From assembly GCA_963721805.1 (NCBI GenBank), contig CAVRJY010000001.1, positions 1,216,001 through 1,280,000 of the forward strand: 64,000 nt of DNA, written 5' to 3'. The DNA is from Nitrospirota bacterium. Its GTDB lineage: Bacteria; Nitrospirota; Thermodesulfovibrionia; Thermodesulfovibrionales; JdFR-86. The position numbers were made by a program, and so were the translations under genes. The notes under the pieces are model-generated. The model was not told where the DNA came from and made no database searches. It saw only the letters and a program-made list of their open reading frames with translations. Of the stretch, positions 3,780 through 37,793 are shown piece after piece; position 1 is the stretch's first letter; the number at the start of each line of letters is the position of its first letter.

Positions 3780-3795
3780 TCCCTCCTGCAAAGCC

Positions 3796-3955
3796 GCGCT
3801 AAATACGCGTGATACGTTGTCACGGCTCGCCGCCTCGTCCTCAACGTACGATACAGTACGCCTCCGGGCGGTCTGCTCGCCGCTCCTAGTCTGACGCGAT
3901 TTATCGCGCTTTAAGTTTGCATTGCGTAATCGTGCGAGCGGTCAACGGCATTATT
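3796..3955 (+). repeat. 'End A' structured repeat, copy 1 (about 160 bp)
   Basis: Aligns by eye with the reverse complement of 37633-37793, e.g. shared GCGTGATACGTTGTCACGGCT, CCTCCGGGCGGTCTGCTCGCCG, CGTGCGAGCGGTCAACGGCATTATT. Confidence 0.9.
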
Positions 3956-3998
3956 CACCCCGGTATACTGTCCGCGCAATCCGGTGTCTTATCCAGTA

Positions 3999-4657
3999 AT
4001 GTGCGGACGGTTTGAACTCCACAGCCCGATAGATCGGATAATCAAGACCTTCGGTGTGAAGAATTCAGTTGTTGAGTTTGCGCCGCGCTATAACATCAAA
4101 ATATACTCATAGTTACCTCAGAGGGACACGTCAATCGTTTGCTGATCGCGAGGTGGGGTTTGATACCGGTATGGTCAAAGGACCCGCGCATAGGCAGCCG
4201 CATGATTAACGCAAGGGCCGAGACCCTGACAGAGAAACCGTCATTCAAGGGCCTGCTGAAGAAGCATCGCTGTATTGTAGTCGCGGACGGTTTCTTTGAA
4301 TGGAAGCACGAGGGCGTGCGGAAGATACCGATGTATATCACGCTTAAGGGGAGGCAGCCCTTCGGGTTTGCGGGGCTTTTCAGCTTGTGGAAAGATCCTG
4401 ACGGCGAGACGGTGCCGACCTGCACGATCATCACCGTAGCCGCCAATGTGGCTCTTCAGGTCGTGCATGACCGGATGCCCGCGATCCTGTCGAAAAAGGA
4501 TGAGGCGCGGTGGATTGATGCTGAGCAGGATTATTCCATAATCTTGCCCGAAGTGCTCAGGCCATACCCGCCGAAGGAAATTGTCTGTTATGAGGTTCGC
4601 CCGCCGGTTAACAGTACGTCGAATGATATCCCGGAAAACATCAAGAGGATTGCATAG
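3999..4657 (+). pseudogene. SOS response-associated peptidase (SRAP/YedK/HMCES family), frameshifted near 4097
   Basis: ATG 3999 reads MCGRF...PRYNI then stops at TAG 4110-4112; a second frame continues QNILIV...RWGLIP...INARAET...HDRMPAIL to 4657. Confidence 0.85.
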
Positions 4658-4710
4658 GCGTCCATATACCCTTACTTGCCGCGATAAACGATTCACGGGT
4701 TTGCCTGTGC

Positions 4711-5234
4711 ATTAACTATAGTTAATCGTAAGTTAATAGAAAACGCACGGCCCATCATTTTTCCTATCAACTCCGGTTTATATATAAACCGTAGTATATC
4801 GCTTTTTTCATTTCGTTATGCTTCAATACACAATGACTATGACAGGCTCATTTTTGATAGCGCTGAAAACGAGGGCGGAGGCCGATGGACAGCGCGAAAA
4901 ACGTATCCGAACATCCGAACACGGGAGAGGTCAAATTAGCGATGTTTTTCGGTACCTTGGACTGTTTTTTGTCTGTTCATTCGAACGCAATAAAAAACGC
5001 GCGCGCACGCGCGCGGAATGCCTATGTATGCCTAAGCGCGGACATCAGAACATGCCTTTGACCTTGTGGGGCGCGGGGGGCGTCCGTTCGTCCGTGCCCC
5101 CCGAAAGCGCGGCCAAATCGTCTTCAGACAAGGCAGGGCGAGAAGACCGCCCGATGGTGTACTGTGAGCGTACATAGAGGGCGAGTCTTCGATGCCCAAC
5201 GCAGTATCAAGCGATTTGGAGCGCTTTCAAGGAG
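4711..5234 (+). repeat. 'End B' composite repeat, copy 1 (about 520 bp)
   Basis: Colinear conserved blocks with the reverse complement of 35038-35618: two AT-rich palindromes, ATCCGAAC repeats, CG tract, terminal structured unit of about 125 bp. Confidence 0.88.
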
Positions 5235-5268
5235 CTCCCCTTAAGCAGTATGGGTTACGAAATGGGAT

Positions 5269-5326
5269 GTACATAGAGGGCGAGTCTTTGAAGCCCAACG
5301 CAGTATCACGCGATTTGGCGCGCTTT
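5269..5326 (+). repeat. 58-bp direct duplication of the distal half of the end-B terminal unit
   Basis: GTACATAGAGGGCGAGTCTT...GCGATTTGG.GCGCTTT at 5170-5227 and 5269-5326, with few mismatches. Confidence 0.85.
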
Positions 5327-5400
5327 GATAAATGTGTAGAGATAGCATTTTTCAGTCTCGCATCATTGACCATATGGTTGCTCAGGTGGTAAAATTGAAG

Positions 5401-6216
5401 ATGGCTAGATCCATGCTCATTTCACTATGTATGGTCTTGTTAGTTGCTCAGTCCGCCTGGGCCGACGTCTACAAATACGTCGACAGCTCCGGCACTGTCA
5501 CACTCACTGACGTCAAGACCCCGACCACCGAGCCCGGCCACGTGCTGGCGCGGATATACAGGGTCAGTACGGCGCCTTCCTACACCCCGCCGGACAAGTA
5601 TACCTATCCCGATTCTCATCTCAGGATCTCCCCGGCTCGCAGCGAGAGGTACCGTGACATGATCGACGACCACGCGAGCGAGCACGGGCTGGACCCCCGG
5701 CTGCTGGAGGCCGTCATCACCGCGGAGTCGAACTTCAACCAGACGGCTATATCGAACAAGGGCGCGCTGGGGCTGATGCAGCTCATGCCGGACACCGCTT
5801 CGCTGATGGGGGTGAGAAACCCCTTCAACGCCGACGAGAACATCTCGGGCGGAGCGCGGTACCTGCACGCGATGCTGGACCGCTTCGGCGGCAACCTGAC
5901 GCTCGCGCTCGCGGCCTATAACGCCGGGCCGCAGAACGTAGAGAAATACGGCACGGTCCCGCCGTTTGCCGAGACGCAGAACTATATCAGGCGGATCTAT
6001 TCGCTCTATAAGGGCGAGAAGCGCCTGAAGGGATACTCCTCGGAGGCGTCGTTCAAGCCGGCCACGATCGTGACCCAGTCGGCGGTCGTCTCGGCCTCGG
6101 TGACTCCGCCTCCGAAGGCCAAGAAGGAACCGATCTACAAGATGGTCCTCGCCGACGGCACGATACTCTATACAAATAACGCGTATGCCGGCAGGGCTGG
6201 AAACGCGGCGCGGTAA
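5401..6216 (+). CDS. lytic transglycosylase (SLT domain) with signal peptide and DUF4124-like N-terminal segment
   Basis: AESNF, GALGLMQLMP, LAAYNAG, ETQNYI motifs; ADVYKYVDSSG segment; start chosen at ATG 5401 behind TGGTAAAAT. Confidence 0.9.
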   Translation: MARSMLISLCMVLLVAQSAWADVYKYVDSSGTVTLTDVKTPTTEPGHVLARIYRVSTAPSYTPPDKYTYPDSHLRISPARSERYRDMIDDHASEHGLDPRLLEAVITAESNFNQTAISNKGALGLMQLMPDTASLMGVRNPFNADENISGGARYLHAMLDRFGGNLTLALAAYNAGPQNVEKYGTVPPFAETQNYIRRIYSLYKGEKRLKGYSSEASFKPATIVTQSAVVSASVTPPPKAKKEPIYKMVLADGTILYTNNAYAGRAGNAAR

Positions 6217-6234
6217 ACTGTTATAACATCCTCC

Positions 6235-7212
6235 ATGCTCAAAGAAATCCTGAGGTTCAAGTCCGAACGCCGCGCCCTGATCGTCGCCCATAACTACCAG
6301 CGCGACGAGGTGCAGGAGATCGCGGACTTCTGCGGCGACTCGCTCGAACTCTCGCGCATCGCGTCGACGGCCGAGTGCGAGGTGATCGTGTTTTGCGGCG
6401 TGGATTTCATGGCCGAGAGCGCATCGGTGCTATGCCCTGACAAGACCGTGTTGCTGCCCGAGATCGGGGCCACCTGCCCGATGGCGGACATGATCCGCAC
6501 GGACGAGCCCCGGCGCGTCTGGAAGGAGTTCCCGGGCTATAGCGTGCAGCCGATGCTCCGCTACCCGATCGAGTATACCCTCAGGCAGATCAAGGCCGAG
6601 CACCCCGGTGCGCCGGTGGTCACCTACGTCAACACGACCGCTGCGGTGAAGGCCGAAAGCGACGTCTGCTGCACCTCGGCCAACGTGATCGAGGTCGTAA
6701 ACTCGATGCCCGGCGAGAAGGTCATCTGCGTGCCGGACCGCAACCTCTCGGCATGGGCGCAGAGGAACACGACAAAGCAGATCATAAGCTGGGACGGGTT
6801 CTGCCACGTCCACGACCGCGTGACCGCCTCTGACATCGAGGCCGCGAGGCGCGAGCATCCCGGCGCGGTGCTGATGGCGCACCCCGAGTGCAGGCCCGAG
6901 GTGCTTGCCCTGGCCGACCACGTGACGAGCACCTCAGGGATGCTCAGGTTCGCGAAGCAGTCAGGTAGCCGCGAGTTCATCGTCGGCACAGAGATCGGCC
7001 TGATGTACAGGCTTAGGAAGGACAACCCTGATAAGGTCTTCCATGCGCTTCGCAAAGACATGATCTGCCCGAACATGAAGAAGACCACGCTGCGAAGCGT
7101 GCTTGCCGCTCTTCAGGAGATGAAGCACGTGGTCAAGGTCCCTGAGGACATACGCGTGCCCGCCAAGCGCGCGCTGGACCGGATGCTCGAGATCAGCGCG
7201 ATCAAGAAGTAA
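6235..7212 (+). CDS. nadA: quinolinate synthase A
   Basis: AHNYQ, GDSLELS, FCGVDFMAE, CPMA, YVNT, AHPEC, CPNMK. Confidence 0.96.
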   Translation: MLKEILRFKSERRALIVAHNYQRDEVQEIADFCGDSLELSRIASTAECEVIVFCGVDFMAESASVLCPDKTVLLPEIGATCPMADMIRTDEPRRVWKEFPGYSVQPMLRYPIEYTLRQIKAEHPGAPVVTYVNTTAAVKAESDVCCTSANVIEVVNSMPGEKVICVPDRNLSAWAQRNTTKQIISWDGFCHVHDRVTASDIEAARREHPGAVLMAHPECRPEVLALADHVTSTSGMLRFAKQSGSREFIVGTEIGLMYRLRKDNPDKVFHALRKDMICPNMKKTTLRSVLAALQEMKHVVKVPEDIRVPAKRALDRMLEISAIKK

Positions 7213-7271
7213 TCGAATGGGGCCAGCCGCGCCCCGCGTAAGCGGCCGCTTTCTATCTGGTAATATAATGA

Positions 7272-8288
7272 ATGTCCGCGACCGAGTATCTGTACCTTAA
7301 GTTTTCCTCGTACGCCGGGATGTTCGCGCTTCAGGCCGCGCTGCACTCGCTGGTCGCGATGGTGCTGGCCGAGAGCGCGATCATCGCATGGGAGATCGGG
7401 GACCCGGCCGTGCGCCAGCGCTTCAGGTTCCTCGTGATCCTCGTGCCGATAGCGTTCTTCCCGCTCTACCAGTTCGTCGATCCGCACCGCGGGGACGTGT
7501 ACTTCAGGTTTATGAGCCTGATGGACTCTAACCGCTGGTTTTTCCTCGAGCCGGTAAGCGGCATGCCGGTACTGCTCGCGGTGCTCGCGATATTCGCGCT
7601 CACCGCGGCCGTGTTCTTCCTGCAGGAGCTGATGCCGATAGCCATGCACCTGGTCGAGAAGGGCAGGGGCGGGGCGGATGGCGAACCCGGTGAGGTGGAC
7701 GAGGCCTCGGAGCGGAAGGTGCAGGAGGCGCTCGACGGCCTGCCGATAGGCATGGACACGGTCGACATATTCGAGGACGCGGAGCTGGTCATATTCTCGT
7801 CGACCGGTTTCGACCCGAAGGTGCACGTATCGACCGGACTTGCAGGGGCCTTTACGGCCGGGCAGCTGCGCGTCGCGATAGCGCACGAGATCGCCCATAT
7901 CCAGCGCAGCAGGAAGCCGTTTCTTATCGTCGCGTACCTGCTGAGGATGATCGCGTTTTATAACCCGGTATCGCTCGTGGTCTTCCGCAAGCTCGCGCAG
8001 GAGGAGGAGATGGTCTGCGACGACATCGCGGTGCAGATCACCGGCGACCGCGAGTCGCTCGCGGATGCGGTCAACCTGCTGCGGCCCGAGGATGACGAGC
8101 GGGCCCCGGATGACGAGGCGCGCGGCATCGGCCGGATGGTCTCGGCCGTTGAGCGCTACGGCCTCGACCTGATGCTCGCGCACAGGGCCGAGCGCATCGC
8201 CGAGCCCCGCGACGACGAGTCGCACTGGAGGCTCCCATACCTCGTCACGCTCGCGAGCATTGTCGGGGTCAACTACTTCGTGGTTTAA
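7272..8288 (+). CDS. membrane zinc metallopeptidase, M56 (BlaR1-like)/M48 family
   Basis: HEIAH motif, YNP...EEEMVCD, several hydrophobic helices. Confidence 0.75.
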   Translation: MSATEYLYLKFSSYAGMFALQAALHSLVAMVLAESAIIAWEIGDPAVRQRFRFLVILVPIAFFPLYQFVDPHRGDVYFRFMSLMDSNRWFFLEPVSGMPVLLAVLAIFALTAAVFFLQELMPIAMHLVEKGRGGADGEPGEVDEASERKVQEALDGLPIGMDTVDIFEDAELVIFSSTGFDPKVHVSTGLAGAFTAGQLRVAIAHEIAHIQRSRKPFLIVAYLLRMIAFYNPVSLVVFRKLAQEEEMVCDDIAVQITGDRESLADAVNLLRPEDDERAPDDEARGIGRMVSAVERYGLDLMLAHRAERIAEPRDDESHWRLPYLVTLASIVGVNYFVV

Positions 8289-8294
8289 TAGTCG

Positions 8295-8840
8295 ATGCCA
8301 CGCTCCGCGACAGCGAAGACTTTGATGGGATTATTGAAGTTCGCCCTGATGGCCGCGCTGACGGTCGCGGTGATCTCGCTCCTGAACCGCTTCGTGACCT
8401 CGGCCGCCACGGGGTTCGCGAGGAAGTACGACACGGTCGACGATGCGCGCCGCTCCATCGGTGCGCGCGAACTCCTCATCCCGTCATATTTCCCTGAGGG
8501 CATCTCGTGGCCCCCCTCGCTCATAATCGGCCAGCAGCGGCCGTTCCGCGCCGCGGTCATGGAGTTCAGCTCACCCTCCACGCACGATACGATCCTTGTG
8601 ATCGAGCAGTCCGAACTCGCGGCCAGGGACGACAAGCTCCTGCGCATCTCCCTCGATAATGTCGTCGAGGAGACGGCATACAACTTCAAGGGCAGAAGCT
8701 CGGTCCTGCAGGTCGGCTCATGCAGCGGCCACGCGCCGTGCAGCCGCATCACATGGCTTCAGGACGGCGAGCACCACACCGTGCTCCTGCTGTCATCCCC
8801 GTTTGAGCTCGTGAAGATCGCAGAGAGCATGGTCCGCTAA
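8295..8840 (+). CDS. hypothetical membrane-anchored protein
   Basis: 181-aa ORF 6 nt after the peptidase; N-terminal hydrophobic helix. Confidence 0.65.
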   Translation: MPRSATAKTLMGLLKFALMAALTVAVISLLNRFVTSAATGFARKYDTVDDARRSIGARELLIPSYFPEGISWPPSLIIGQQRPFRAAVMEFSSPSTHDTILVIEQSELAARDDKLLRISLDNVVEETAYNFKGRSSVLQVGSCSGHAPCSRITWLQDGEHHTVLLLSSPFELVKIAESMVR

Positions 8841-8909
8841 GCCGGATTTCTTCCCGTCTGATCCGTAAATCCCCCTCGCTGTCCCGCTAAGCACGCTTTC
8901 CCGCTCATC

Positions 8910-8976
8910 TAGGAACTTTTTCCTATGGAAATCGGACTGTATTCCTATTTTCATCCCCCTTAGGCGCTGATAGACT
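8910..8976 (+). promoter_or_regulatory. putative tandem regulator sites plus extended -10 for the cytochrome cluster
   Basis: TAGGAA-N4-TTCCTA (8910-8925), TCGGAC-N4-TTCCTA (8932-8947), TGaTAGACT (8968-8976). Confidence 0.5.
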
Positions 8977-9079
8977 TGAAGGCAAGAGAACGAAGGAGGA
9001 AAAGGAGATGGAGACAGGAACTCAGGAGATCGGATGCGGGTATCACGAGTCAGGCATCAATTTCAGAGGAGGCATCGAC

Positions 9080-9352
9080 ATGAGCGGATCGACGAGGAAG
9101 ACAGGACTGACGGTATTGGTGGCCACGCTGTTCATTGTGGGCGTGGCACTTTCGGTTGCGCTCCCGTATGGCGTCGGGACGATGGTATTTCTCTTCATGC
9201 TCGCGTTTTGCGGAGCGGTCTATGCGGTGGGCGTGGCATGCTTCGGCCTGTTGAGGGAACTCATGGGCAGGAGCGTCTCGTTTGGGTACTTGCCGGGCGA
9301 GGCCTACATGACCGGCAAGAAGTCCCGCAAGCAGGTCTGCCGGGGACGTTAA
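9080..9352 (+). CDS. small membrane protein, paralog 1
   Basis: GGAGG SD before ATG 9080 (alternative start 9008); ALSVALPYG shared with 9850 ORF. Confidence 0.7.
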   Translation: MSGSTRKTGLTVLVATLFIVGVALSVALPYGVGTMVFLFMLAFCGAVYAVGVACFGLLRELMGRSVSFGYLPGEAYMTGKKSRKQVCRGR

Positions 9353-9416
9353 GCAGGACAACGACGCCAAGCCCGAGGGGCAGTAAGGTTTTATAAAGGC
9401 GAAGGAAAGAAGGTCG

Positions 9417-9827
9417 ATGAAGATGATCGCATACAGGGCGGGCATAAAGGTCGGGCAGGGGTCGTACTGGAACCCGGACGACGGTGCCTATATCACGTTC
9501 GATGAACCGGGCCGCATGCTGCCCGGGGACGAGCGGACGACGTATATAAAGATGACGTCGCTGCGCTCGATGGTGATCGCGCCGCTGTTCGGGATGATGT
9601 ACGTATTGTTTCTGCCGCTGTTCGGTGTCGCCGCGTTCGTCGTCACCGCGGCGGCGAGGGCGCTGTGCGCGGCCGGTTCGATCACGTCGTCGGGCCTCCG
9701 CGTCTGCGGCGTACTGGCGAGCATCAGCACGCGCCTGAACTGGCGGCCCTCGCAGGCCTATCTCTCCGGCGTGCGCAAACACAGGCGCTCAGGCGGGTGC
9801 GGATGCCCCGGCCCGCGCGGACGCTAA
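9417..9827 (+). CDS. small membrane protein, paralog 2
   Basis: YRAGxKVGxGxYWNPD shared with 9850 ORF; hydrophobic core; WRPSQAYL tail. Confidence 0.72.
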   Translation: MKMIAYRAGIKVGQGSYWNPDDGAYITFDEPGRMLPGDERTTYIKMTSLRSMVIAPLFGMMYVLFLPLFGVAAFVVTAAARALCAAGSITSSGLRVCGVLASISTRLNWRPSQAYLSGVRKHRRSGGCGCPGPRGR

Positions 9828-9849
9828 CAAGGTAATAAGGAGAACCGCG

Positions 9850-10254
9850 ATGTTTCTATACAGGGCAGGCACTACAGTCGGGAAGGGGACCTACTGGAAC
9901 CCGGATACGAAGCTGAGGCAGGTAGTCGAGGACGAGTGTGAGCTGACCGGCAGCGGATGGTATTTGAGATTTCCGGAGAGCTGGCTGCTTCTGCCGGTGA
10001 TCCCGCTCGGGCTTGCGCTCTCGGTGGCGCTCCCATATGGCCTGGGCGTGATGCTGTTTCTGGCGATGGCTGCGATCTATACGCTGATGTTCGAGACCAT
10101 AAGCGCGGTCGAGGAGGTCTTCGGCGCGCCGCTCAGGGCGCTGGGACGGGAGCTCGTGACATGGCTCACGTTCGGGATGAGGCCAACGGTCGCCACGCTT
10201 GACGGCACCGGCAGGACCAGGCGCGGCGGCAAGAAGAACCGTACGGACAAGTAA
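9850..10254 (+). CDS. small membrane protein, paralog 3
   Basis: AAGGAG SD; YRAGTTVGKGTYWNPD and LALSVALPYG motifs. Confidence 0.72.
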   Translation: MFLYRAGTTVGKGTYWNPDTKLRQVVEDECELTGSGWYLRFPESWLLLPVIPLGLALSVALPYGLGVMLFLAMAAIYTLMFETISAVEEVFGAPLRALGRELVTWLTFGMRPTVATLDGTGRTRRGGKKNRTDK

Positions 10255-10272
10255 GGGAAAAAGGAGGATGCA

Positions 10273-10662
10273 ATGCACACGCTTTTTGACTTCATCAGCC
10301 ACGTTAACGGCATGCAGTATGTAATCGCGCTCTGCTCGGTGGCGGGCTTCGCCCTGTTCGTCGAGCTCCTGAGCCCCAGGCCGTTTCTGGGACTGATCAG
10401 CGCGATCGCCGAGGACATAAGGCATATCAAGGCCGAGGGCTCGGTCAAGATCTACGCCCTCGCCCGAAACGGCGCTGTGGCCCTCGGGTGCGCCGCGATG
10501 TACGCGGCCTCGCTGCCGATACTGTTCGCTAGCGGTATGCTGGCGAACCTCGGAGAGACGTTCGAGGCCGTCAACCCCACCGGCTGGAACCCCGTACGGG
10601 CATACTTCGTAAAGCGCAGGAAGACGACGAAGACCGACAACAAGGACGAGGCCGGAAAATGA
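10273..10662 (+). CDS. small membrane protein, paralog 4 (distant)
   Basis: AGGAGG SD; two hydrophobic segments; GWNPVRAYF tail. Confidence 0.7.
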   Translation: MHTLFDFISHVNGMQYVIALCSVAGFALFVELLSPRPFLGLISAIAEDIRHIKAEGSVKIYALARNGAVALGCAAMYAASLPILFASGMLANLGETFEAVNPTGWNPVRAYFVKRRKTTKTDNKDEAGK

Positions 10663-11126
10663 TCCCGGTCAGGCGTCTCGTATGCAGGACCGCGCTGCGC
10701 GTCCTCACAGCACTGCTCCTCGCGTGTTGCGCCGGCGCGGTCGCACTCGCTGATACGGGCAATATAACGATGCCCGGCACTATCAATATAAAGGCGCTCG
10801 AAGACCGCTTCGGCCCCGTGGCCTTTGACCACGAGAAGCACGTGACGATGGCCGGGGCGTGCGGCAAGTGCCACCACCTTCATAACGACAAGACAGTGGA
10901 CGCCTGCAGGACCTGCCATTCGCTCAAGGCCGAGGACTTCAGGGCCACGGCCACGCAGGGCTTTCTTCGGTGCGAGGGCTGCCACTCGGACGCCTCGGCC
11001 GAGTCGCCCGGCATGCCGGGGCTAAAGGTTGCGTTCCACAAGGTCTGCTTCTCGTGCCACGTTGGGATGGCCGGGCTCGGCTCGACCCCAAAGTCGTGCG
11101 AGCGCACCTGCCACTCACGCAGATGA
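10659..11126 (+). CDS. cytochrome c3-like (class III) multiheme cytochrome
   Basis: Signal peptide, PVAFDHEKH, four CxxCH plus one CxxxCH, LKVAFH. Confidence 0.9.
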   Translation: MIPVRRLVCRTALRVLTALLLACCAGAVALADTGNITMPGTINIKALEDRFGPVAFDHEKHVTMAGACGKCHHLHNDKTVDACRTCHSLKAEDFRATATQGFLRCEGCHSDASAESPGMPGLKVAFHKVCFSCHVGMAGLGSTPKSCERTCHSRR

Positions 11127-11146
11127 TTAGCGATAAGGAGGGTGAA

Positions 11147-13343: not shown

Positions 13344-13353
13344 GAGGCCCGGG

Positions 13354-14820
13354 ATGCCCTCCCGCCTGAGCATGAGGATCGCGGCCGGATCGGCGGCAGC
13401 CTTCGCCGCGGTAATCGTCGCTGTTGCCCTGTTTGCCGCGACCTGCTTCGCCGAGGACGTCAGAGCCGGGGACGAGCGCGCGGCCTGCCTGAAGTGCCAC
13501 GCGCAGGGCGGCGGGATCAAGCGGTTTCCGGACGGGAAATCCATATCGACGTACGTCGACGGCGTGGAGCTCGAACAGTCCGTGCACGGCGCTCTGCCTT
13601 GCACCGCCTGCCACAAGGACTTCGCCTCGGGCCGCCACCCGGACCGCGCCTTCAGGAACAAGCCTCAGTACCTCATCCGCGAATCGCACGGCTGCCGGGG
13701 CTGCCACTCGGACGCCGCGCTCAGGCGCAAGCAGGTCCACGAGGAGCTGTTTGCGAAGGAAGACGCGGGCGACGCCATTGTATGCACCAACTGCCACGGA
13801 GCGCACGCGATACGGCGCGCCAGCCACGCCTCGGACAAGGGCGAGGACGAGCGCTGCATGGGTTGCCACGAGGGCGGCGGGGCATCTGAGTTCTTAAACG
13901 GCGAACAGCTGCCGGTCCATGTCGACCTCGCTGTGATCGGCAGCTCCGCGCACCACGGCCTGCGGTGCATGGACTGCCATTACTGGATCACGGGGGAGCG
14001 CCACCCGCGCCGGAACTTCCGCTCGCTGAGGGACTACCAGCTCGCCACGGCCGAGATCTGCCGCCGCTGCCACTTCGACAAGTACTCAGAGGTCAGCGAG
14101 AGCATCCACTACGACATGCTCAGAAGCGGGAACCTGAAGGCCCCCACCTGCATCGACTGCCACGGCGGGCACTCGGCCACCTCGCCTGCCAGGGACCGCA
14201 TGGCCGTCGTGCGCAAGTGCCGCGCCTGCCACGGCGGGATATACGAGACATACGCTGCGAGCGTCCACGGCAGCGCCCTGATACAGGAGGGCAACCGCGA
14301 CGTCCCGATCTGCACCGACTGCCACTCCTCGCACAGCATCAAGCGCGCCGACACGAACGCCTTCCACCAGGGGATCCCGGACACGTGCAGCGCCTGCCAC
14401 TCCAACCCGGCCATCATGTCCAAGTACGGGCTCTCGACCGACGTGGTCAGGACCTATCTTGCGGATTTCCACGGCGTGACGATGGAGTTCTACCGCAAGC
14501 AGGGCGGGATGTCGCAGTACCGCCCGGCGCAGAGCATGGCCGTGTGCACCGACTGCCACGGCACGCACGACATCATGCGCATGTCCGGCTCCGACACGAA
14601 GGAGATCAAGGCGCGGCTGCTCGAGCGCTGCCGCAACTGCCACCACGACGCCACCGAGCAGTTCCCCGACGCCTGGCTCTCGCACTACCGGCCGAGCTTG
14701 AAGGTAGCCCCGATGGTGTTCATAGTCGAGAAGTTCTACGGCCTGATGATGCCGCTGATGGTCGTCGGGCTGATACTCCAGATACTGCTTCACATATGGC
14801 GCTACCTGGTCAGCCGGTAA
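13354..14820 (+). CDS. multiheme cytochrome c with 13 CxxCH motifs and C-terminal membrane helix
   Basis: 13 CxxCH counted; repeated SVHG segments; signal peptide; C-terminal ILLHIWR helix. Confidence 0.92.
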   Translation: MPSRLSMRIAAGSAAAFAAVIVAVALFAATCFAEDVRAGDERAACLKCHAQGGGIKRFPDGKSISTYVDGVELEQSVHGALPCTACHKDFASGRHPDRAFRNKPQYLIRESHGCRGCHSDAALRRKQVHEELFAKEDAGDAIVCTNCHGAHAIRRASHASDKGEDERCMGCHEGGGASEFLNGEQLPVHVDLAVIGSSAHHGLRCMDCHYWITGERHPRRNFRSLRDYQLATAEICRRCHFDKYSEVSESIHYDMLRSGNLKAPTCIDCHGGHSATSPARDRMAVVRKCRACHGGIYETYAASVHGSALIQEGNRDVPICTDCHSSHSIKRADTNAFHQGIPDTCSACHSNPAIMSKYGLSTDVVRTYLADFHGVTMEFYRKQGGMSQYRPAQSMAVCTDCHGTHDIMRMSGSDTKEIKARLLERCRNCHHDATEQFPDAWLSHYRPSLKVAPMVFIVEKFYGLMMPLMVVGLILQILLHIWRYLVSR

Positions 14821-14830
14821 GGAGGACACC

Positions 14831-24356: not shown

Positions 24357-24363
24357 TGCCCTG

Positions 24364-25422: not shown

Positions 25423-25432
25423 ATTCCCTCCC

Positions 25433-26668: not shown

Positions 26669-26675
26669 GCGCCCC

Positions 26676-27938: not shown

Positions 27939-28058
27939 TGGATATCCCTCCCCGCGTTGGTTAATCAGATAGTATATATGAGGCTTAAGCGGTTAATAAA
28001 GCGGGAATCCCCGCGCGATCCGGGGCTGCGCGCGCCGCCATATGCGGTACAATGATAT

Positions 28059-30176: not shown

Positions 30177-30208
30177 ATATTTACATTACGCATCAGCGAG
30201 GGCAAAAT

Positions 30209-31471
30209 TCAATGGCCCGAGGCTCCGCGCCTGCCCGAGAGCGCGTATATCGCGGTCGTAGTGATAAGAGCGAGCGCGAGTATCCCGGCCGCCCCGACCA
30301 CGCTGTTAAGCAGCTTCGGCCGTGCTATCAGCGCAACGCCGAGGTATCCCATCATCAGGCCCGAAAGCAGCTTCAGGAGCCGCCCCTCGGTCTCGCTCAG
30401 CTTCCTCCCGCCGAGCGTCACTACGAACAGCGCCACGATCACCGCAAGCGGTATGACGTAGACCACGTTATAACACGCGAGGTAGAGGTAATACGTGCTC
30501 CAGGGAAGCTTGTGGAGCGTGAGCACCCGCGTGTAGACCATCGGGAACCCCGCTGTGCACAACAGCTCGTATGCGTTTGCGGCCGCCGCGAGCACGACCG
30601 TCCCGGCCAGCATCGAGGGCATGCTGGACGCCTTGATAAGCCCCCTCATGCGCTCAAAGAGCATCGGCTTTGCGGCCTCGGGGATCGAGAGCGAGACGCC
30701 CTGCTTGAACGCGAAGAAGTCCTTTACGTTTATCGCCCCGGCTACAACGGCGCCGCCGCCCGCGACCGTCGTGATGAGCGCGATATTGCCGACTATCACG
30801 AAGAAGTTCAGCCACGCGGCCATGAACAGGAAATAGACCAGTCCCGAGAAGAATACAAACGTGCCGCCCACGATCAGCATCCGCGTGCGGCTCCGCGCGT
30901 GCACGAGCAGGCTCAGCAGGAACATCAGGACGAAGAGCGCGCAGGGGTTGAAGCTGTCGAGCCCGCCGAGTATGAGCGTCAGCAGCGGCAGCGAGATCGC
31001 GGATGCGTCGAGGCTGCCGAGCAGCGGTATCGTGACCGTCGTGGGTGGTTTCTCCTCGACGGGTGCGGGGTTTGGCGGTCGGTCGTGGTTCGCCTGCACT
31101 ATGCCCTCGATCCCGCGTGCCGTGTCCTCGCTGAAGCCCATGAATACCTGGTTTCCGATCACCGTGACAGGCACCGAGACGGCCGTTATCCCGGCCTTCG
31201 CGGCGAACGCCTGAAACAGCCTCGCGTTTCCTTCGTTATGCCAGACCTCCAGGTCAGTCACCCTGAGCTCTGGATACCGCTCGATCAACCCCGCCAGGAA
31301 CCTCTGCTCCTCGGCACAGTGAGGGCAGCCCTCGCCCCGGAACAAGAGGATGCTGACCTCGCGCGTGGCTGGCTTCTCATCGCGCGGCTGCGCGGTCGCC
31401 GGAGAGGCGGGCACGATTGATATGAGCAGCATGATTATCAGGAGCATCTTGCGTGTCGTCATCTGATCCAT
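30209..31471 (-). CDS. thioredoxin/glutaredoxin-like CPHC domain fused to a DsbD/CcdA-like membrane domain
   Basis: GCPHC, SVP, DSFNPCA, ELLCTAGFP; start approximate. Confidence 0.8.
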   Translation of the reverse strand: MDQMTTRKMLLIIMLLISIVPASPATAQPRDEKPATREVSILLFRGEGCPHCAEEQRFLAGLIERYPELRVTDLEVWHNEGNARLFQAFAAKAGITAVSVPVTVIGNQVFMGFSEDTARGIEGIVQANHDRPPNPAPVEEKPPTTVTIPLLGSLDASAISLPLLTLILGGLDSFNPCALFVLMFLLSLLVHARSRTRMLIVGGTFVFFSGLVYFLFMAAWLNFFVIVGNIALITTVAGGGAVVAGAINVKDFFAFKQGVSLSIPEAAKPMLFERMRGLIKASSMPSMLAGTVVLAAAANAYELLCTAGFPMVYTRVLTLHKLPWSTYYLYLACYNVVYVIPLAVIVALFVVTLGGRKLSETEGRLLKLLSGLMMGYLGVALIARPKLLNSVVGAAGILALALITTTAIYALSGRRGASGH

Positions 31472-31586
31472 TATCTCACCAAGCGTGATCACCCGCAATC
31501 ATGCAAATATTGTCTTTTAGCGTATTGTCGTTTATACTGACTTCGGTCGTTGACCGAAATGCGGAATCGCAATAAGGGGAGGGGTC

Positions 31587-31787
31587 ATGCTAAAAAGGGT
31601 TGTGTTGGGATGTCTCGTGCTCGGTGGAGTATTCCTTGCCGGGTGCGCTCCGGTGAAGATCACAAAATGCAAGATCGAGTACAAGTACGAGAACGGGCAG
31701 AAGGTCATGGAGTATTCCGAGTGCATCGAGCAGGTGCCCGAGAAGATGCCGCCGATTCACCTCAAAAACGTGGAGCTGTATGAATGA
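31587..31787 (+). CDS. small lipoprotein
   Basis: GGAGG SD; lipobox LAGC. Confidence 0.65.
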   Translation: MLKRVVLGCLVLGGVFLAGCAPVKITKCKIEYKYENGQKVMEYSECIEQVPEKMPPIHLKNVELYE

Positions 31788-32185
31788 TCGGCTCCAAGGT
31801 GAATAGACCGGCGGGATATCTGGTCGGAGCTATGCTCGTTTTTTTTCTTGTCGCGGGCTGCTCATCCGCCGGAAGGCAATTCGATCCAGCACGGTTTTCA
31901 AGCTCCATTGAAAAGGGCAAATCAACAAAGAAGGATGTGATCGAGATATGCGGCCAGCCGCTCTCGACCCGGTTCGATTCCACCTCCGGGGTGGAGACCT
32001 GGCACTATGCCGCTGTCAACAAACATGTGACGGGCACGGGTGTGGTAACCAATCTCATCGGTATTGGCACTGAATGGCAATCCGATACGATGCTGCTTGA
32101 TGTCCAGTTCAAAGGCGACACGGTCGAGGAGTACCAGATGGAGACGTCAAGCAGGACGCAGATGCATCAATCCCTGGCGCGATAA
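31784..32185 (+). CDS. lipoprotein, BamE/SmpA-like
   Basis: VAGC lipobox; IEKGKSTKKDV...GQP...ETWHY; ATGA overlap with the previous gene. Confidence 0.7.
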   Translation: MIGSKVNRPAGYLVGAMLVFFLVAGCSSAGRQFDPARFSSSIEKGKSTKKDVIEICGQPLSTRFDSTSGVETWHYAAVNKHVTGTGVVTNLIGIGTEWQSDTMLLDVQFKGDTVEEYQMETSSRTQMHQSLAR

Positions 32186-32210
32186 ATCGTTAATAAGGCG
32201 TGAAGATAAG

Positions 32211-32240
32211 ATCGGGGGCCTTCGGGCCTCCGATTTCTTT
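32211..32240 (+). terminator. intrinsic terminator
   Basis: ATCGGGGGCC-TTCG-GGCCTCCGAT followed by TTCTTT. Confidence 0.75.
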
Positions 32241-32526
32241 GTAATGAATTAATGGCCAAGCACATGAGGGCATGCAACAGCCAGCTTGCCGTTCTGTGCC
32301 GCATCAGGCAAGCCCGCCGAGCGAACCGAAGTATTTATCGGGGAATGGATTACCCGCAATCAGATGTTTGAGGACATGGAAGCCCGAGTTGATTGTGGGT
32401 CGATAAATACTAGGGAAAGCGAGCGCTTTTTGGCGCAGCCGGAGCGGCGAGTTTTTATCCAACTTTTGGAAATGTTGGTCGGGTGTGGGAGCGCGCAGCT
32501 CCCACAATAAAATAAGCCAGATTAGT

Positions 32527-32766
32527 CTATTCCCGTGGAAGCCATCCTTTTTCATTTCGTTTTGGTATTGTGATCCCATTAGCTCTTAGATGAGCAGTGA
32601 CTTTGCCTTCATAATGAGGGGCCCAGCCGTCCCAATTGCTGTCATAGCAGCTTTTACATACTGTAAGGTTATAGGTTGAAATATGTTTTCCGTTATATGC
32701 ATGAGGACCGAACTGGAATTCACGACCGCATATCTGACAACGTACCGTATTAGGTGAGTTATCCAT
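32527..32766 (-). CDS. small hypothetical protein with two CxxC motifs, AT-rich
   Basis: CQIC...CKSC, NWDGWAP; GGAG upstream. Confidence 0.55.
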   Translation of the reverse strand: MDNSPNTVRCQICGREFQFGPHAYNGKHISTYNLTVCKSCYDSNWDGWAPHYEGKVTAHLRANGITIPKRNEKGWLPRE

Positions 32767-32840
32767 TGGATGTACTCCTATGATGAATAGTTACAGTTAA
32801 AGTTGGTTAACATACACTATATAACCTATTTTATTTGAAA

Positions 32841-32869
32841 ACCGGGGGGCGCAAGTCGCGCCCCCCGGT
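32841..32869 (-). terminator. groEL terminator
   Basis: ACCGGGGGGCGC...GCGCCCCCCGGT hairpin just after the groEL stop, T-run on the minus strand. Confidence 0.8.
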
Positions 32870-32888
32870 GAGTAATTTAGCCAAAATT

Positions 32889-34526
32889 TTAGTACATCCC
32901 GCCCATGCCGCCGCCACCCATCGGGGGCATCTGCATCTTGCCGCCTTCTTCCGGAATGTCGGAGATCATGACCGAGGTCGTGAGCATCAGCGAACTGACG
33001 GACGCCGCGTTCTGAAGTGCGCAGCGCGTGACCTTCGTCGGGTCGATGATCCCGGCCTTTATCATGTCCACGTACTCGTCCGCCTGGGCGTCGAAGCCGT
33101 AGTTCACGGTCTTGTTGGCCAGGACCTTCTCGAGCACAACGGAGCCCTCGAGCCCGGCGTTGTTGACGATCTGCCTGATCGGCTCGGTGATGGCCTCCTT
33201 GACGATGTTGACGCCAAGCTGCTCGTCGTGGTTGAGGCTCTTGACGCCGTCGAGCGACTTCATGCACCTAAGCAGCGCAACGCCGCCTCCGGGCACGATG
33301 CCTTCCTCGACCGCCGCGCGGGTTGCGTGCAGGGCGTCCTCGACGCGGGCCTTCTTCTCTTTCATCTCGGTCTCGGTCGCGGCGCCTACGTTGATGACCG
33401 CAACGCCTCCGACGAGCTTCGCGAGCCTCTCCTGGAGCTTCTCGCGGTCATAGTCCGAGGTGGTCTCGTCGATCTGGGTCTTGATCTGCTTGACGCGGCC
33501 CTGGATCTTGGCCGGCTCTCCCGCGCCCTCGACGATGGTGGTGTTCTCCTTGTCGATGTTGATCTTCTTGGCGCGGCCGAGGTCCTTGATCGTGATGCTC
33601 TCAAGCTTGATGCCGATGTCCTCGGTGATCATCTGGCCGCCGGTGAGGATCGCGATGTCCTCGAGCATGGCCTTCCTGCGGTCGCCGAAGCCGGGGGCCT
33701 TTACGGCCGCGACCTGCAGCGTGCCGCGCAGCTTATTGACCACCAAGGTGGCGAGGGCCTCGCCCTCGACGTCTTCGGATATGATCAGCAGCGGGCGGCC
33801 CATCTTAGCGATCTGTTCAAGGATCGGGAGGAGGTCCTTCATCGCGGAGATCTTCTTTTCGTTGATGAGGATGAAGGCGTCTTCGAGCACGCACTCCATG
33901 CGGTCGGGGTCCGTTACGAAGTAGGGTGAGAGGTATCCGCGGTCGAACTGCATGCCCTCGACTATGTCGAGCGAGGTGGCCATGCTCTTGGCCTCCTCGA
34001 CGGTGATGACGCCGTCCTTGCCGACCTTGTCCATCGCATCGGCGATCAGCTCGCCGATCGAGTGGTCGTTGTTGGCCGAGATCGTGCCTACCTGTGCGAT
34101 CTCCTTCTTGTCAGCGACGGACTTGCTCATCTTCTTGAGCTCCTCGACTATCACGACCACGGCCTTCTCGATGCCGCGCTTGAGGTCCATCGGGTTCGCG
34201 CCGGCGACTACGTTCTTCATGCCGGCCTTGTAGATTGCGTACGCGATGACAGTGGCGGTCGTGGTGCCGTCACCGGCCACGTCGGAGGTCTTCGAGGCGA
34301 CCTCGCGCACGAGCTGCGCGCCCATGTTCTCCCACGGGTCCTTGAGCTCGATCTCCTTGGCCACGGTCACGCCGTCCTTGGTTATCGTCGGCGCGCCGAA
34401 CTTCTTCTCTATGATAGCGTTGCGGCCCTTGGGGCCGAGTGTGGCCTTTACCGCGTCGCTGAGCTGCTTTACGCCCTGAAACATGGCCGAACGGGCGGCC
34501 TCGTCAAACAGAAGCTGTTTTGCCAT
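32889..34526 (-). CDS. groL: chaperonin GroEL
   Basis: [30 protein letters not shown] tail. Confidence 0.99.
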
Positions 34527-34544
34527 TTCTGTGGTATCTCCTTG

Positions 34545-34811
34545 TTAATTCTGGATTATGCCGAGGAGGTCTTCCTCTTTTACGATGAGGTGGTCTTTGT
34601 CGTCGATCTTGATCTTCGAGCCCGAGTACCTGTCAAACAGGACGATATCGCCGACCTTGACCTCTTTGACGTCCGAGCCGACGGCCTCGACCTTGCCCTG
34701 CTGCGGCTTTTCCTTGTTTGCGGTGTCCGGGACGTACAGTCCCCCTGCGGTCTTCTCCGGCTCTTCCGCGAAGCTGACCCACACCCTGTCTTTAAGCGGC
34801 TTGATTTTCAT
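34545..34811 (-). CDS. groS: co-chaperonin GroES
   Basis: [27 protein letters not shown]. Confidence 0.97.
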
Positions 34812-34847
34812 CAGTTGAGTCTCCTTTCGTTATGGTTCTGGGAGTTG

Positions 34848-34874
34848 TTAGCACTCCATCCAAGTGAGTGCTAA
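34848..34874. promoter_or_regulatory. CIRCE element (HrcA operator)
   Basis: Exact TTAGCACTC-N9-GAGTGCTAA upstream of groES. Confidence 0.95.
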
Positions 34875-35037
34875 GTGTACATCGTTTGGTTCCCCAGAGG
34901 CAAGCGGCGTGAAAATCCGATGGATAGCCGGAATTGTAGAATAGTCATAAATAACTCCTTAAAGCTCTCATTTATGGAGATTTGCGCCGAATTGCGCTGG
35001 ACATAATCCAGCTTACGTGAAAGCGCGATAGCTTTCA

Positions 35038-35618
35038 TGAAAGCGCTCCAAATCGCTTGATACGTCGTTGGGCATCGAAGACTCGCCCTCTATGTACGCC
35101 CAAGTACACCATCGGGGTGCCACGGGCACCTCTTTCCAAGGAGAGGGGCCAACTGGCCCCCTTGTCTGAAGCCGATTTGGGCGCGCTTTCGGGGGGCACT
35201 GCAACGGAAGCCCCCCGCGCCCCGAAGGTCAAAGGCATGATAAGAAAAAGCATGTCCGGATGCTCGCGCTTAGGTATAGTTACGCATTCCGCGCGCGCAC
35301 GCGCGCGTTTTTGCCGATTTTGTTCGGATGTTGGGCGTAAAAAAGGGGCTAACCATGCGGATAATATCATTTTCCTGATCGGGTCTTGTTCGGATGTTCG
35401 GATGTTTTTGGCCGAAAATAGGTCGATGTTCGAATCCCAATTGTGCTTGGTACTCCCGACCTCCGGGTTCATTGATTTTGTCTCTATATACATCATGCCA
35501 TATTGAAGCACAACGAAATGAAAAAAGCGATAACCTACGGTTTATATATAAACCAAAGGTTATAGGAAAAATTGATCCCCGTGCGTTTTCTACTAACTTC
35601 CGACTAACTATAGTTAGT
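35038..35618 (-). repeat. 'End B' composite repeat, copy 2 (inverted, about 580 bp)
   Basis: Reverse complement shares colinear blocks with 4711-5234. Confidence 0.88.
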
Positions 35619-35884
35619 GATAAGTCGATTGCATTCGTTAAGGTTTGTGGGAGTTTTTGATTGTTTCTGTATGTCTCTACATGATAATATATATACGTGT
35701 AAATTCTTTTATATTGGGGAGCGATCATGAACCATACAATAATGCTGCCTAGCAACTTTGGGACGAAAAAGTATGGTTTCTTTGATTTCAATGACTTACT
35801 CGCAATATTCGATTGGACAATTAAAAATGCGAATGTTGTGATAAGTTTCGAGGAAAATAATAGAGGGAACTTTCAGGCTTTAAC

Positions 35885-36480
35885 GAAAACCATGCCAGTA
35901 TGCCCCGTGGCTTGCCACGGGGATGAATGGCATCCCTGCCGGGGGGATGTAAGGGGGGCTGGAAGTCCCCCTTTCCCGCCGAGGCAATTGCGGGCTATCA
36001 TGAGGCATGGGGTTACGCAGGACGAGTCACGCTGTATATGACACCGGGTACCATCTGGTATGGTGTCCTAAGTATCGCAAGAGACTGTTCGCGCAAAGTT
36101 ACATGCGCGAGCGGTGCGCGGAACTTTTCAGGGAGATAGCTGAAGAGTATGAATATGAGATAGTGGAGATGGAAGTGGCGGAGGACCATGTGCATATATT
36201 TCTATCGTTCCCGCCACGGTACTCGATAGGGGTGGTGGTCAGAACCCTGAAAAGTATCAGCGCCCGTGAGCTGTTCAAGCAATACCCATCGCTGAGGCAA
36301 AGACTATGGAAGGGTGAGCTGTGGGAGGATGGGTACTTTGCGCGGACAGTCGGGGACAGCTTGACCTCGGAAATGATCCGCAAATACATACGCGGCCACA
36401 GAGCAGAGAAGCAATTGCCTGCGCAGCTGGACTTATAGCTGCGCCACGGATGCCCCGTGGCTTGCCACGGGGAGCTTCAC
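35885..36480 (+). mobile_element. IS200/IS605-family insertion sequence, tnpA only, 596 bp
   Basis: Identical subterminal hairpins ATGCCCCGTGGCTTGCCACGGGGA at 35900-35923 and 36450-36473; ends in TTCAC; no target duplication. Confidence 0.9.
36007..36438 (+). CDS. tnpA: IS200/IS605 Y1 (HUH) transposase
   Basis: YHLVWCPKYR, DHVH, LKSISAR, LWEDGYF, IRKYI. Confidence 0.95.
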   Translation: MGLRRTSHAVYDTGYHLVWCPKYRKRLFAQSYMRERCAELFREIAEEYEYEIVEMEVAEDHVHIFLSFPPRYSIGVVVRTLKSISARELFKQYPSLRQRLWKGELWEDGYFARTVGDSLTSEMIRKYIRGHRAEKQLPAQLDL

Positions 36481-37632
36481 TTTATTAATACTTTACATAT
36501 GGTATTTAAGGATTAATAATTGCAAAATTACAATTAAATTTAGGAAGGGAAGTTCACTAGTTAGACGTCTTGGGGCAACGGGGTCCTGGGAGAAAATGAG
36601 GGCAGAGTCGTGGCAAGATGTATTGGAAAATACTATTGAGAATTTTCCTGACAGTATGTATAAACCTTTGATTGCAGTTAGGAATAAACTTGATTTCGAA
36701 AAGACGTTAGAAAAATTGCAATCTTATACTTCAGGGTTTAATATTGAATATGAAAAAACTCTTAGGCACATTATAGCAGAGTTGCTATACAATACTATGG
36801 AACATGGTAAGGCTATAAATCTAAGCCTAAACATACCATCCTTAATCCAATTTACATGGTATCAGAGAGTTAATGAACTTCATTTTATAATTGCCGACCT
36901 AGGTGTTGGCATTAAGAGACATCTTGAACAAGCATATCTTCCGTTCCATGACGATAAAAGTGCTATTTTGGAATCTTTAAGGCCGAATGTATCTGGCACC
37001 TTTGGCATATTAGACCCATATAAAAGTAAAGACAATGCTGGTTATGGATTATTTCTTTCGAGTAATATAATAAGAAGATTAAATGCCGACATGAATATTG
37101 TTTCCGGTAATGGTCATGTGCATATTTCACCGAAGGATACTACAGCTCATCAATTGGATTATTATTGGCCTGGTACATTTGTTCTGGTTAATATAAGTTT
37201 AAGCAATAACGAAGCGATTAGTTTGCAAAAGCTATTATCAGAGTTTAGACAGTCAGCTGAACTCGAATTAAGTGATGCTGAGCTAACAGAGTCTGATAAG
37301 TATCACTACTTGAGTGTTTTCAATTTTTTCGGCAAATATGCTGAAGATAAAGAGTCAGCTATAAAATACCGCGATAATTATATTACTCCTTCACTTAATC
37401 AGGGAAAATCATTACATATTGACTTCAGTAATGTTCTTGCTGCTCCACATAGTTTTTTGAGTGCATTACTGGCGACTCCTATTCATAATCTTGGAATGTC
37501 TGCATACAAAAAAATTAAAATAACGAATGCTCCCCCAGATATCCGTGAAACAATTGATTACATTCTAAACGAAAATACTTAATGGCAACATGGGCCGGGG
37601 GCTTCTCAACTCCCCGAAAGCACGAGAACACC

Positions 37633-37793
37633 AATAATGCCGTTGACCGCTCGCACGCTTAGGTAATGGAAACTTAAGGTGCGATAAATTGCGTCAGACT
37701 AGGAACGGCGAGCAGACCGCCCGGAGGTGTATCGTGATATACATTGAGGACGAGGCTGCAAGCCGTGACAACGTATCACGCAACTTTAGCGCG
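37633..37793 (-). repeat. 'End A' structured repeat, copy 2 (inverted)
   Basis: Reverse complement aligns with 3796-3955; begins about 8 nt after the nuoN stop. Confidence 0.9.

Follow-up and report, generated by a model that had tools for sequence, protein, structure and literature searches.

The attC sites of integrons are structured, imperfect palindromes of ~60-140 nt at gene ends, which also exist in clusters without an integrase, and the genes carried by integrons are small, promoter-poor, low in GC and rich in toxin-antitoxin pairs. ERIC/IRU and Correia repeats are hairpins of 100-150 nt in transcribed intergenic regions; to our knowledge, these families do not bracket islets of foreign genes with a fixed polarity. 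Mobile insertion cassettes (MICs) and miniature inverted-repeat transposable elements (MITEs) also occur in short, cargo-less forms. According to the sources cited here, MICs and MITEs carry terminal inverted repeats around passenger genes and lack a transposase (PMC5444012); REPINs are over-represented inverted doublets of an abundant extragenic repeat, non-autonomous and predicted to form hairpins in single-stranded DNA or RNA (PMC3116915); and dif modules are accessory modules, often toxin-antitoxin pairs, each located between two inverse sites and devoid of a recombinase, whose movement is thought to require a host enzyme and to proceed through a cointegrate and its resolution, with inverted sites precluding simple excision (PMC13141974). 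Here we describe gene cassettes bracketed by inverted copies of a hairpin repeat, two of which lie in a window of 64,000 nt from a Nitrospirota bacterium (the whole stretch of DNA under study; GenBank assembly GCA_963721805.1, contig CAVRJY010000001.1, positions 1,216,001 to 1,280,000), and we follow this repeat through the genome.

A reading of the sequence alone had described the two loci as inverted copies of a cassette in which a variable cargo gene lies between an end A and an end B. The repeats are located where this sequence-only reading had placed them: the A repeats (3791-3955 and 37633-37797) are 87% complementary over 165 nt, and the B repeats align in four segments (4710-4828 with 35501-35619, 86%; 4993-5059 with 35246-35312, 84%; 5094-5133 with 35160-35199, 95%; 5165-5229 with 35038-35102, 95%). 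However, A and B are not two distinct ends. Their outer ~125 nt are inverted copies of one repeat (73.7% identity over 137 nt), which makes each locus a cassette with long terminal inverted repeats. With an iterated nhmmer profile, we found 240 copies of the 133-nt core of this repeat, the T-core, in the 2.78-Mb genome, where they account for 1.06% of the DNA; 226 of them possess the tail. Each copy is part of a discrete unit of 165-180 nt, which we refer to as an arm and which consists of a sharp tail (AAAGCGC...), the T-core hairpin, a variable extension and a head terminus. End A is an A-type arm, and end B is a B-type arm preceded by a further element, module X. The head terminus, GGTCAACGGCAT, is found in 164 of 202 full arms, often with TGATTAGAG next to it, and is common to A- and B-type arms despite their differing extensions. 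As an exact 12-mer, it occurs 104 times in the genome, 94 times beside a T-core, against a chance expectation of 0.7. The B-type arms are 93-97% alike.

The T-core hairpin is kept by compensatory changes. On 49 diverse copies, it comprises 35 pairs with 87.4% of cells paired, and in 19 of these pairs both sides have changed; the observed values were not reached in any of 500 column shuffles, and slid partners yielded just 27-49% paired cells. Since automatic consensus folds performed poorly (RNAalifold gave only 19 pairs on the 49 sequences and 4 on about 200 copies), we took the fold of one copy and then counted its pairs across copies. In 196 distinct copies, there are 392 G-U versus 166 A-C pairs on the head-to-tail strand. 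A search of Rfam 15 at E-values up to 1 returned nothing for 3600-5500 and, for 34800-37900, only a chance-level small RNA (E 0.75) at the end of an IS200 element. Many unpaired arms carry tandem small G+C hairpins after their heads, each ending in CGAATAG (e.g. C1:52790, C1:339252, C1:495185 and C4:110308; C1 to C5 denote contigs), which resemble a REP/BIME-like array.

Many arms lie in pairs with their tails pointing outward, i.e. head to head. We counted 50 such tails-out pairs within 3 kb, compared to ~12 expected and a maximum of 26 in 500 randomizations, while the other arrangements of neighbours occur 7 (tails-in) and 12 and 18 times (the two tandem types), with ~12 expected at random for each. 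Extending the distance to 5 kb yields 58 pairs (K00-K57), among which the two window copies are K30 and K31. The proposed architecture of end, variable cargo and end thus recurs across the genome, and the fixed relative orientation of A and B also stands: of the 34 X modules, 14 have an upstream A-type arm at a distance of up to 6 kb, and the orientation is the same in all 14 cases, with no instance of the opposite one. As for the alternative that the sequence-only reading had itself named, namely abundant independent MITEs paired by chance, the abundance is real and the pairing is non-random. By our own count, ~25 of the 34 X modules have an inverted core of any type within 4 kb. Arm subtypes, in turn, combine about as chance would have it (of the 58 pairs, 27 are other/other, 27 mixed and 4 A/A), and the far arm opposite module X is A-type in 12 of 22 cases. 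Given these genome-wide counts, the A...B pattern is a frequent case of a general pattern of arm, cargo and arm.

Seven pairs are empty doublets with 55-138 nt between the cores and a total length of 315-406 nt, whereas in loaded doublets the heads are separated by 0.5-4 kb of foreign, low-GC DNA. The same polarity is evident in base composition. In paired arms, the 600 nt beyond the head have a GC content below 0.52 in 77 of 112 cases, those beyond the tail in 3 of 112; in unpaired arms, the respective numbers are 21 and 3 of 88, and the genome background is 8.2%. The anatomy of the arms, their polarity and their pairing statistics are thus observed directly.

The first of the two window copies (K30, copy 1) is laid out as follows:

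2766-3779, plus strand: pheS, host gene (Pfam tRNA-synt_2d, E 4.8e-104), with its stop codon 4-8 nt ahead of the tail of arm A1
3783-3955, minus strand: arm A1, i.e. end A (inverted repeat; nhmmer T-core match C1:1219791-1219915), with tail 3783-3794, T-core hairpin 3791-3915, A-type head extension and head motif GGTCAACGGCAT at 3940-3951
3999-4657, plus strand: cargo 1, gene for an SOS-response-associated peptidase (SRAP; Pfam E 6.9e-57), frameshifted near 4095-4112
4711-5041, plus strand: module X, non-coding, with a sharp TTAACTATAGTTAA palindrome start and ATCCGAACA repeats (B-left copies, alignment of 28)
5015-4998 and 4923-4902, minus strand: two terminator-like hairpins of module X (terminator scan)
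5042-5234, plus strand: arm B1 (nhmmer match C1:1221097-1221229; 73.7% identical to arm A1, inverted), with head motif ATGCCTTTGACC at 5042-5053, G+C hairpin extension, T-core 5097-5229 and tail to 5234
5269-5332, plus strand: extra 3' half of a T-core (model positions 65-132; 93% direct repeat, partial nhmmer match), just ahead of the start of the SLT gene

The outer termini read as claimed, CTCCTGCAAAGC at 3783-3794 and GCTTTCAAGGAG at 5223-5234, and an SLT-domain gene followed by nadA lies downstream. The SRAP gene is split: its N-terminal frame (MCGRF, from 3999) stops at a TAG at 4110, and the Pfam match, with the domain segment at 4139-4657, takes in profile positions 58-213 only. With the frameshift in an A-rich stretch, it is either a pseudogene or the product of a homopolymer sequencing error. 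Further 3' halves of this kind, which reach from the apex of the T-core hairpin to the tail, are found at C4:189266-189329, C5:86998-87065, C4:172686-172751 and C1:456395-456627; they sit 35-40 nt past full arms, in one instance three in a row.

Copy 2 (K31) is inverted; it follows groEL and groES on the minus strand and runs through arm B2, module X, an AT-rich open reading frame (ORF) cut by an IS200 element, the cargo gene and arm A2 to nuoN:

35038-35238, minus strand: arm B2 (inverted repeats; nhmmer match C1:1251038-1251195), with its tail at 35038, T-core 35038-35195 and head motif GGTCAAAGGCAT at 35227-35238
35239-35619, minus strand: module X (inverted repeats; alignment of X copies)
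35290-35307, plus strand: terminator-like hairpin of module X, reading from arm to cargo (terminator scan)
35727-35895, plus strand: start of a small AT-rich ORF of cargo 2 (ORF list; no Pfam family), interrupted by the IS200-type element
35896-36476, plus strand: IS200-type insertion sequence of 581 nt (TnpA 36007-36438, Pfam Y1_Tnp, E 6.7e-42), flanked by CCCCGTGGC...GCCACGGGG hairpins
36596-37582, plus strand: cargo 2, GHKL ATPase/DUF4325 (STAS-like) protein (Pfam DUF4325, E 2e-5; HATPase_c, E 1.1e-4)
37633-37798, plus strand: arm A2 (inverted repeat; nhmmer match C1:1253674-1253798), with head motif ATGCCGTTGACC at 37636-37647, T-core 37674-37798 and the tail 4 nt from the nuoN stop codon
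37802-39223, minus strand: nuoN, host gene abutting the tail of arm A2 (Pfam Proton_antipo_M, E 1.2e-84)

Much of what had been said of these two loci holds. The GC content of the cargo is lower than that of the flanks (0.53 against 0.59 in copy 1 and 0.41 against 0.58 in copy 2), the two cargo genes are opposed in direction relative to A and B, and just 4-8 nt separate A from the pheS and nuoN stop codons. The claim that the cassettes have no recombinase of their own is right insofar as Pfam finds no dedicated one among the cargo ORFs, but it had missed the TnpA of the insertion sequence in copy 2. This IS200-type element is a secondary insertion. It appears active and is present in six 100% identical copies of 581 nt, the others being located at C1:42218-42798, C1:366484-367064, C1:1452044-1452624, C4:138460-139040 and C4:146425-147005. 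Since two of the copies directly adjoin module X at its position 22/23, this site may be a preferred target. The GHKL/DUF4325 protein belongs to a widespread family of unknown function, with atlas protein clusters that combine both domains in several phyla (score 0.97), and has no match in PADLOC.

Module X, a non-coding element of ~400 nt, is located between the cargo and one of the heads in about half of the loaded cassettes, and 34 copies (B-left) are present in the genome. The 28 copies that we aligned have a sharp start on the cargo side, formed by the TTAACTATAGTTAA palindrome and a subsequent third GTTAAT; they also share a palindrome (GGTTTATATATAAACC), repeats of ATCCGAACA, and a hairpin of the form CGCGCGCG...CGCGCGCG with a T run behind it. 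In a terminator scan, both the CGCGCGCG hairpin and the ATCCGAACA-repeat hairpin of copy 1 appear terminator-like in the direction from arm to cargo, as does the former in copy 2. The heads of other arms are followed by a second, X-like variant and by plain hairpins resembling intrinsic terminators. The longest ORF runs from X towards A in 9 of 13 A...X cassettes (our count). We tentatively read module X as a putative insulator, perhaps with a promoter towards the cargo. A by-eye impression that the palindrome at its start is dif-like was not supported by a motif scan.

The cargo differs in every one of the 51 loaded cassettes and is low in GC; the interiors of the 58 pairs have nothing in common except X modules, insertion sequences and a single 201-nt match of 80% identity. 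Annotation with Pfam, which covered 150 ORFs from the 51 cassettes, revealed numerous toxin-antitoxin components, namely MNT/HepT in three cassettes, MazE, a MazF-like protein, ParE/Phd, HicA, Gp49/HTH in two cassettes, DUF4258/DUF2283 and DUF2442/DUF4160. Defence-like cargo includes a methylase-Mrr fusion, a KAP NTPase, Abi_C, a HEPN protein, a PLD-like protein, a protein kinase and an HNH nuclease, and 12 of 52 cargo proteins are matched by PADLOC models. More ordinary-looking genes, i.e. a PAS histidine kinase, a radical-SAM gene and a split lnt, may represent chance pairs rather than cassettes. One cassette of 4.1 kb, K27 (L065, C1:1055443-1059822), consists of three toxin-antitoxin modules in a row (MazF-like, MNT/HepT and Phd/ParE); a ~50-nt fragment with the head motif, present in three direct copies, stands between them. 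Two of these modules share the 3' end of one gene, and internal head fragments are also found in K06 and K51. The K27 array is our best hint that the head terminus serves as a reused junction.

What, then, are these doublets? We tentatively favour the view, to which we would give slightly less than an even chance, that head-to-head arm doublets are sites where foreign genes are captured and exchanged at the head motif by a host enzyme. The head-head junction would be the place of capture and exchange, and an enzyme encoded by the host would do this work in trans, on either the folded arm or the head motif. By analogy with dif modules and their inverted sites, the route might consist of a fusion with another DNA molecule at one arm and a resolution at the other, while the arms and module X would insulate the neighbouring host genes from the cargo. 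Here we infer the capture step, the enzyme and a present-day activity. This view is favoured by the excess of tails-out pairs, the polarity, the conserved head terminus, the empty doublets, the K27 array, the hairpin structure, the type of cargo and the terminator-like hairpins of module X. Also in its favour, the arms spread independently of the cargo, with much alike B-type arms next to cargo that is different throughout and with subtypes paired at random. A more far-reaching version, which we consider possible but doubtful, is that of an undescribed chromosomal capture system, in which a hairpin repeat normally located after host genes gained a head terminus (GGTCAACGGCAT...) as the joining or crossover site for a host enzyme. 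The doublets would then be dispersed docking points, giving rise to about fifty mini-islands with defence and toxin-antitoxin genes and occasional small arrays, and module X would be a combined insulator and expression unit.

Several observations speak against capture at the head motif. We found no enzyme for it in the genome: none of the seven tyrosine recombinases is located next to an arm, there is no IS110-type gene, the Pfam family Y1_Tnp is represented by the six-copy IS200 alone, and no integron integrase exceeds the cut-off (NCBIfam TIGR02249, best match 68.8 bits compared to 265). With a genome completeness of 94%, the failure to find such a gene does not prove its absence. The cargo side of the junctions shows no conserved sequence and hence no recognizable att-like partner site. 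The polarity would in part follow trivially if the arms were elements of host-gene 3' ends, beyond whose heads lies intergenic DNA. Furthermore, the related hairpins of other genera are not linked to cargo: at 40 loci, the GC content is 0.60 on both the head and the tail side, and there are no tails-out pairs, so that an association with cargo does not come with the hairpin in general. Finally, the nearest genomes that we compared belong to other genera, both window cassettes are located at synteny breaks, and no orthologous empty or refilled site could be defined.

The comparison comprised 40 relatives, in none of which BLAST detected the arm. With a covariance model, diverged hairpin repeats were found in nine, with 17, 25, 5 and 5 matches in four genomes and weak matches in five. 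At the 40 loci that we fetched, they are symmetric, MITE-like solo units with terminal inverted repeats of their own, and the sequences inspected do not contain the head motif. Among the genomes searched, the link to cargo therefore appears to be a derived trait of this lineage. The exact 24-mer of the B-type tail has no match in genome-contig and metagenome-contig collections, from which records of this or a very near genome may be left out; a degenerate tail pattern yielded 12 single matches in genome contigs, which we attribute to chance, as nhmmer matched the pattern alone. Around copy 1, relatives conserve SLT-NadA without pheS upstream, and around copy 2, groES-groEL is conserved in 14 relatives without nuoN upstream; at the family level, synteny is too eroded to define an empty site. 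The genes pheS and pheT are usually adjacent, and here pheS (2766-3779 in the window) and pheT (C1:1083125-1085167) lie 135 kb apart on opposite strands. We considered an inversion between copy 1 and copy 2 as the cause of the synteny breaks, but the gene neighbours in relatives lend no support to a simple event of this kind.

The same facts might be explained without any dedicated mechanism, an account that we regard as unlikely. In this scenario, the arms would be REP/ERIC-like hairpins of gene 3' ends that spread alone, foreign DNA would accumulate at insulated, harmless sites, and the arms would provide homology for RecA in gene exchange and rearrangement. The position of the arms fits well with it. 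In 116 of 225 arms, a converging ORF of 100 aa or more ends at the tail, which is located -5 to +30 nt from its stop codon, compared to 13-20 of 225 in five random sets and 6 of 201 on the head side, which generalizes the earlier remark on pheS and nuoN; also, many heads are followed by hairpins resembling intrinsic terminators. The cassettes, which make up 4.0% of the genome, are where insertion sequences concentrate: the distance to a T-core is at most 1,042 nt for all six IS200 copies and at most 600 nt for all ten copies of a 1.2-kb rve-type element, and among the seven copies of a 1.07-kb IS30-like element, five interrupt a T-core (C2:367096-368169, C2:397044-398117, C1:387240-388313, C1:649350-650423 and C1:759663-760736). 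Such clustering of three families fits a tolerated dumping ground. The location of both window cassettes at synteny breaks, the separation of pheS and pheT, and the cargo-free hairpins of related genera point in the same direction. On the other hand, only 12 of the 58 pairs have both tails at converging stop codons, whereas 35 have one and 11 neither, so that two independent 3'-end elements do not explain the second, inverted arm; in X-bearing cassettes, the arm away from X abuts a host gene in 14 of 22 cases, the arm on the X side in 6 of 22. If ~8% of genes carry an arm, which is an estimate and not a computed value, few double-armed gaps are predicted, not 50. Moreover, the conserved head terminus and its reuse between the K27 modules suggest a specific junction.

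We consider it improbable that the cassettes are non-autonomous, MIC-like transposons, whose arms would be long terminal inverted repeats, whose unit of arm, cargo and arm would be cut or copied by a transposase in trans, and whose MITE form would be the empty doublets. Such elements would account for the sharp outer ends with inverted termini of ~125 nt, for the empty doublets of 315-406 nt and for the symmetric, MITE-like repeats with terminal inverted repeats in relatives, and the abundance and likeness of the arms imply a recent spread. However, ~110 arms are unpaired, the subtypes are combined at random, and no cargo is found twice among the 51 loaded cassettes. The flanks of both window copies lack a target duplication, as had been noted; across 164 arms, the longest flanking direct repeats are distributed as in a control with mismatched flanks, with two exceptions (16 nt and 11 nt), and the sequences that flank a pair on its two tail sides resemble each other in inverted, not in direct, orientation. 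The ends of the three insertion sequence families do not resemble the arm termini, and Pfam annotation of the cassette ORFs revealed no further transposase family near arms beyond these secondary insertions. Mobilization of the loaded cassette as a unit thus finds no support, with no cargo in duplicate, no target duplication and no pair of empty and filled orthologous sites found. In the one public DNA run, which covers the organism at a depth of ~2-4 and was searched as contigs only, there were no joints that bear on excision or circles. A SINE-like retro-element, suggested by an A-rich flank after the tail and by the 3'-end fragments, was also set aside, as target duplications are absent; no search for a reverse transcriptase was made.

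That one of the known site-specific systems for gene cassettes is present here in variant form, be it integron-like, with the hairpin as attC, or similar to Xer and dif modules, is very improbable in our view. It would be in keeping with a hairpin site of attC size directly after stop codons, with toxin-antitoxin pairs and small unknown genes, the typical cargo of chromosomal integrons and dif modules, with the small direct array in K27, and with inverted sites around each module as in dif modules (PMC13141974). The likeness to the latter, borne out by the excess of tails-out pairs, concerns the architecture only. The sequence-only reading had set the cassettes apart from integrons and from pdif modules, and we concur: the best integrase match remains at 68.8 of the required 265 bits, the sites are inverted and dispersed rather than direct, and the hairpin abuts host genes instead of cargo genes. 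Furthermore, a XerD-arm-like motif, for which we used a general consensus and not a dedicated tool, has no match in 67.8 kb of arm sequence, while an ordinary, canonical-looking dif candidate of the chromosome is located at C1:1448127 (minus strand; XerD arm TTATGTTAAAT), away from the arms.

It is hardly credible that the joins between repeat and cargo are mis-assemblies across a high-copy repeat: there are ~240 copies, and the organism has a depth of only ~2-4 in the sole public run found, but at 58 loci the same layout is seen around different cargo, with a polarity that is consistent throughout, the contig spans 1.55 Mb, and a contig of that run, possibly the source sample, crosses the cargo/X junction of copy 1 (4669-4905) without a difference, which lends weak support.

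Two further sets of repeats lie in the window. At 55778-60600, four repeat units of ~1.1-1.2 kb follow one another in tandem; they are diverged, with segments of 60-84% identity, and are probably a row of paralogous genes. At 13783-14580, repeated TGCACCGACTGCCAC-type segments look like haem-binding CXXCH motifs in a gene for a multihaem cytochrome.

Should genes actively be captured at the head junction, acquired genes would be organized here in a different way than in integrons, dif modules or transposons. The 2.8-Mb chromosome of this uncultured lineage would offer many single, insulated slots, with toxin-antitoxin and defence-like genes as well as most insertion sequences packed into ~4% of the DNA, and there would be a concrete sequence, the head motif, along with a short list of host recombinases as candidates. 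If foreign DNA instead accumulates passively, a structured repeat can mark and insulate 'safe' sites, and hairpin repeats can mislead readers into seeing composite mobile elements.

A literature search, in which the name of the lineage was not used, retrieved no cassette or repeat system of this kind, and each of the described systems shares some features with it. The arms are similar to ERIC/IRU and Correia repeats in their size, terminal inverted repeats, long hairpin, position just after genes and patchy spread among relatives. Like integron attC sites, they are structured hairpins at gene ends and accompany low-GC cargo rich in toxin-antitoxin pairs. Unlike attC sites, they are inverted at 58 dispersed loci instead of forming a direct tandem array, with K27 as the sole small direct exception, and their hairpin abuts host genes, whereas the cargo meets the head extension. 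With MICs and MITEs, the cassettes have in common the terminal inverted repeats around passenger genes without a transposase and the existence of cargo-less forms; they differ in that there is no parent insertion sequence with matching ends, no target duplication and no loaded cassette in repeat copies. The closest repeat biology is that of REPINs, which are likewise abundant, extragenic, non-autonomous and hairpin-forming, with inverted doublets in excess. However, we found no RAYT (REP-associated tyrosine transposase), which in REPIN systems is a single-copy gene usually with the repeats on either side, the sole Y1 transposase being that of the six-copy IS200 with its unrelated ends; each arm is already a 130-nt hairpin by itself, and the doublets enclose kilobases of cargo. 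The closest architecture in print is the dif module, which shares with the cassettes their nature as discrete accessory modules between inverted sites without a recombinase inside. But instead of 28-bp XerC/XerD sites, the cassettes described here possess structured arms of 165-180 nt, and rather than being packed on plasmids, they are dispersed over a chromosome, where one of their ends usually abuts the stop codon of a host gene.

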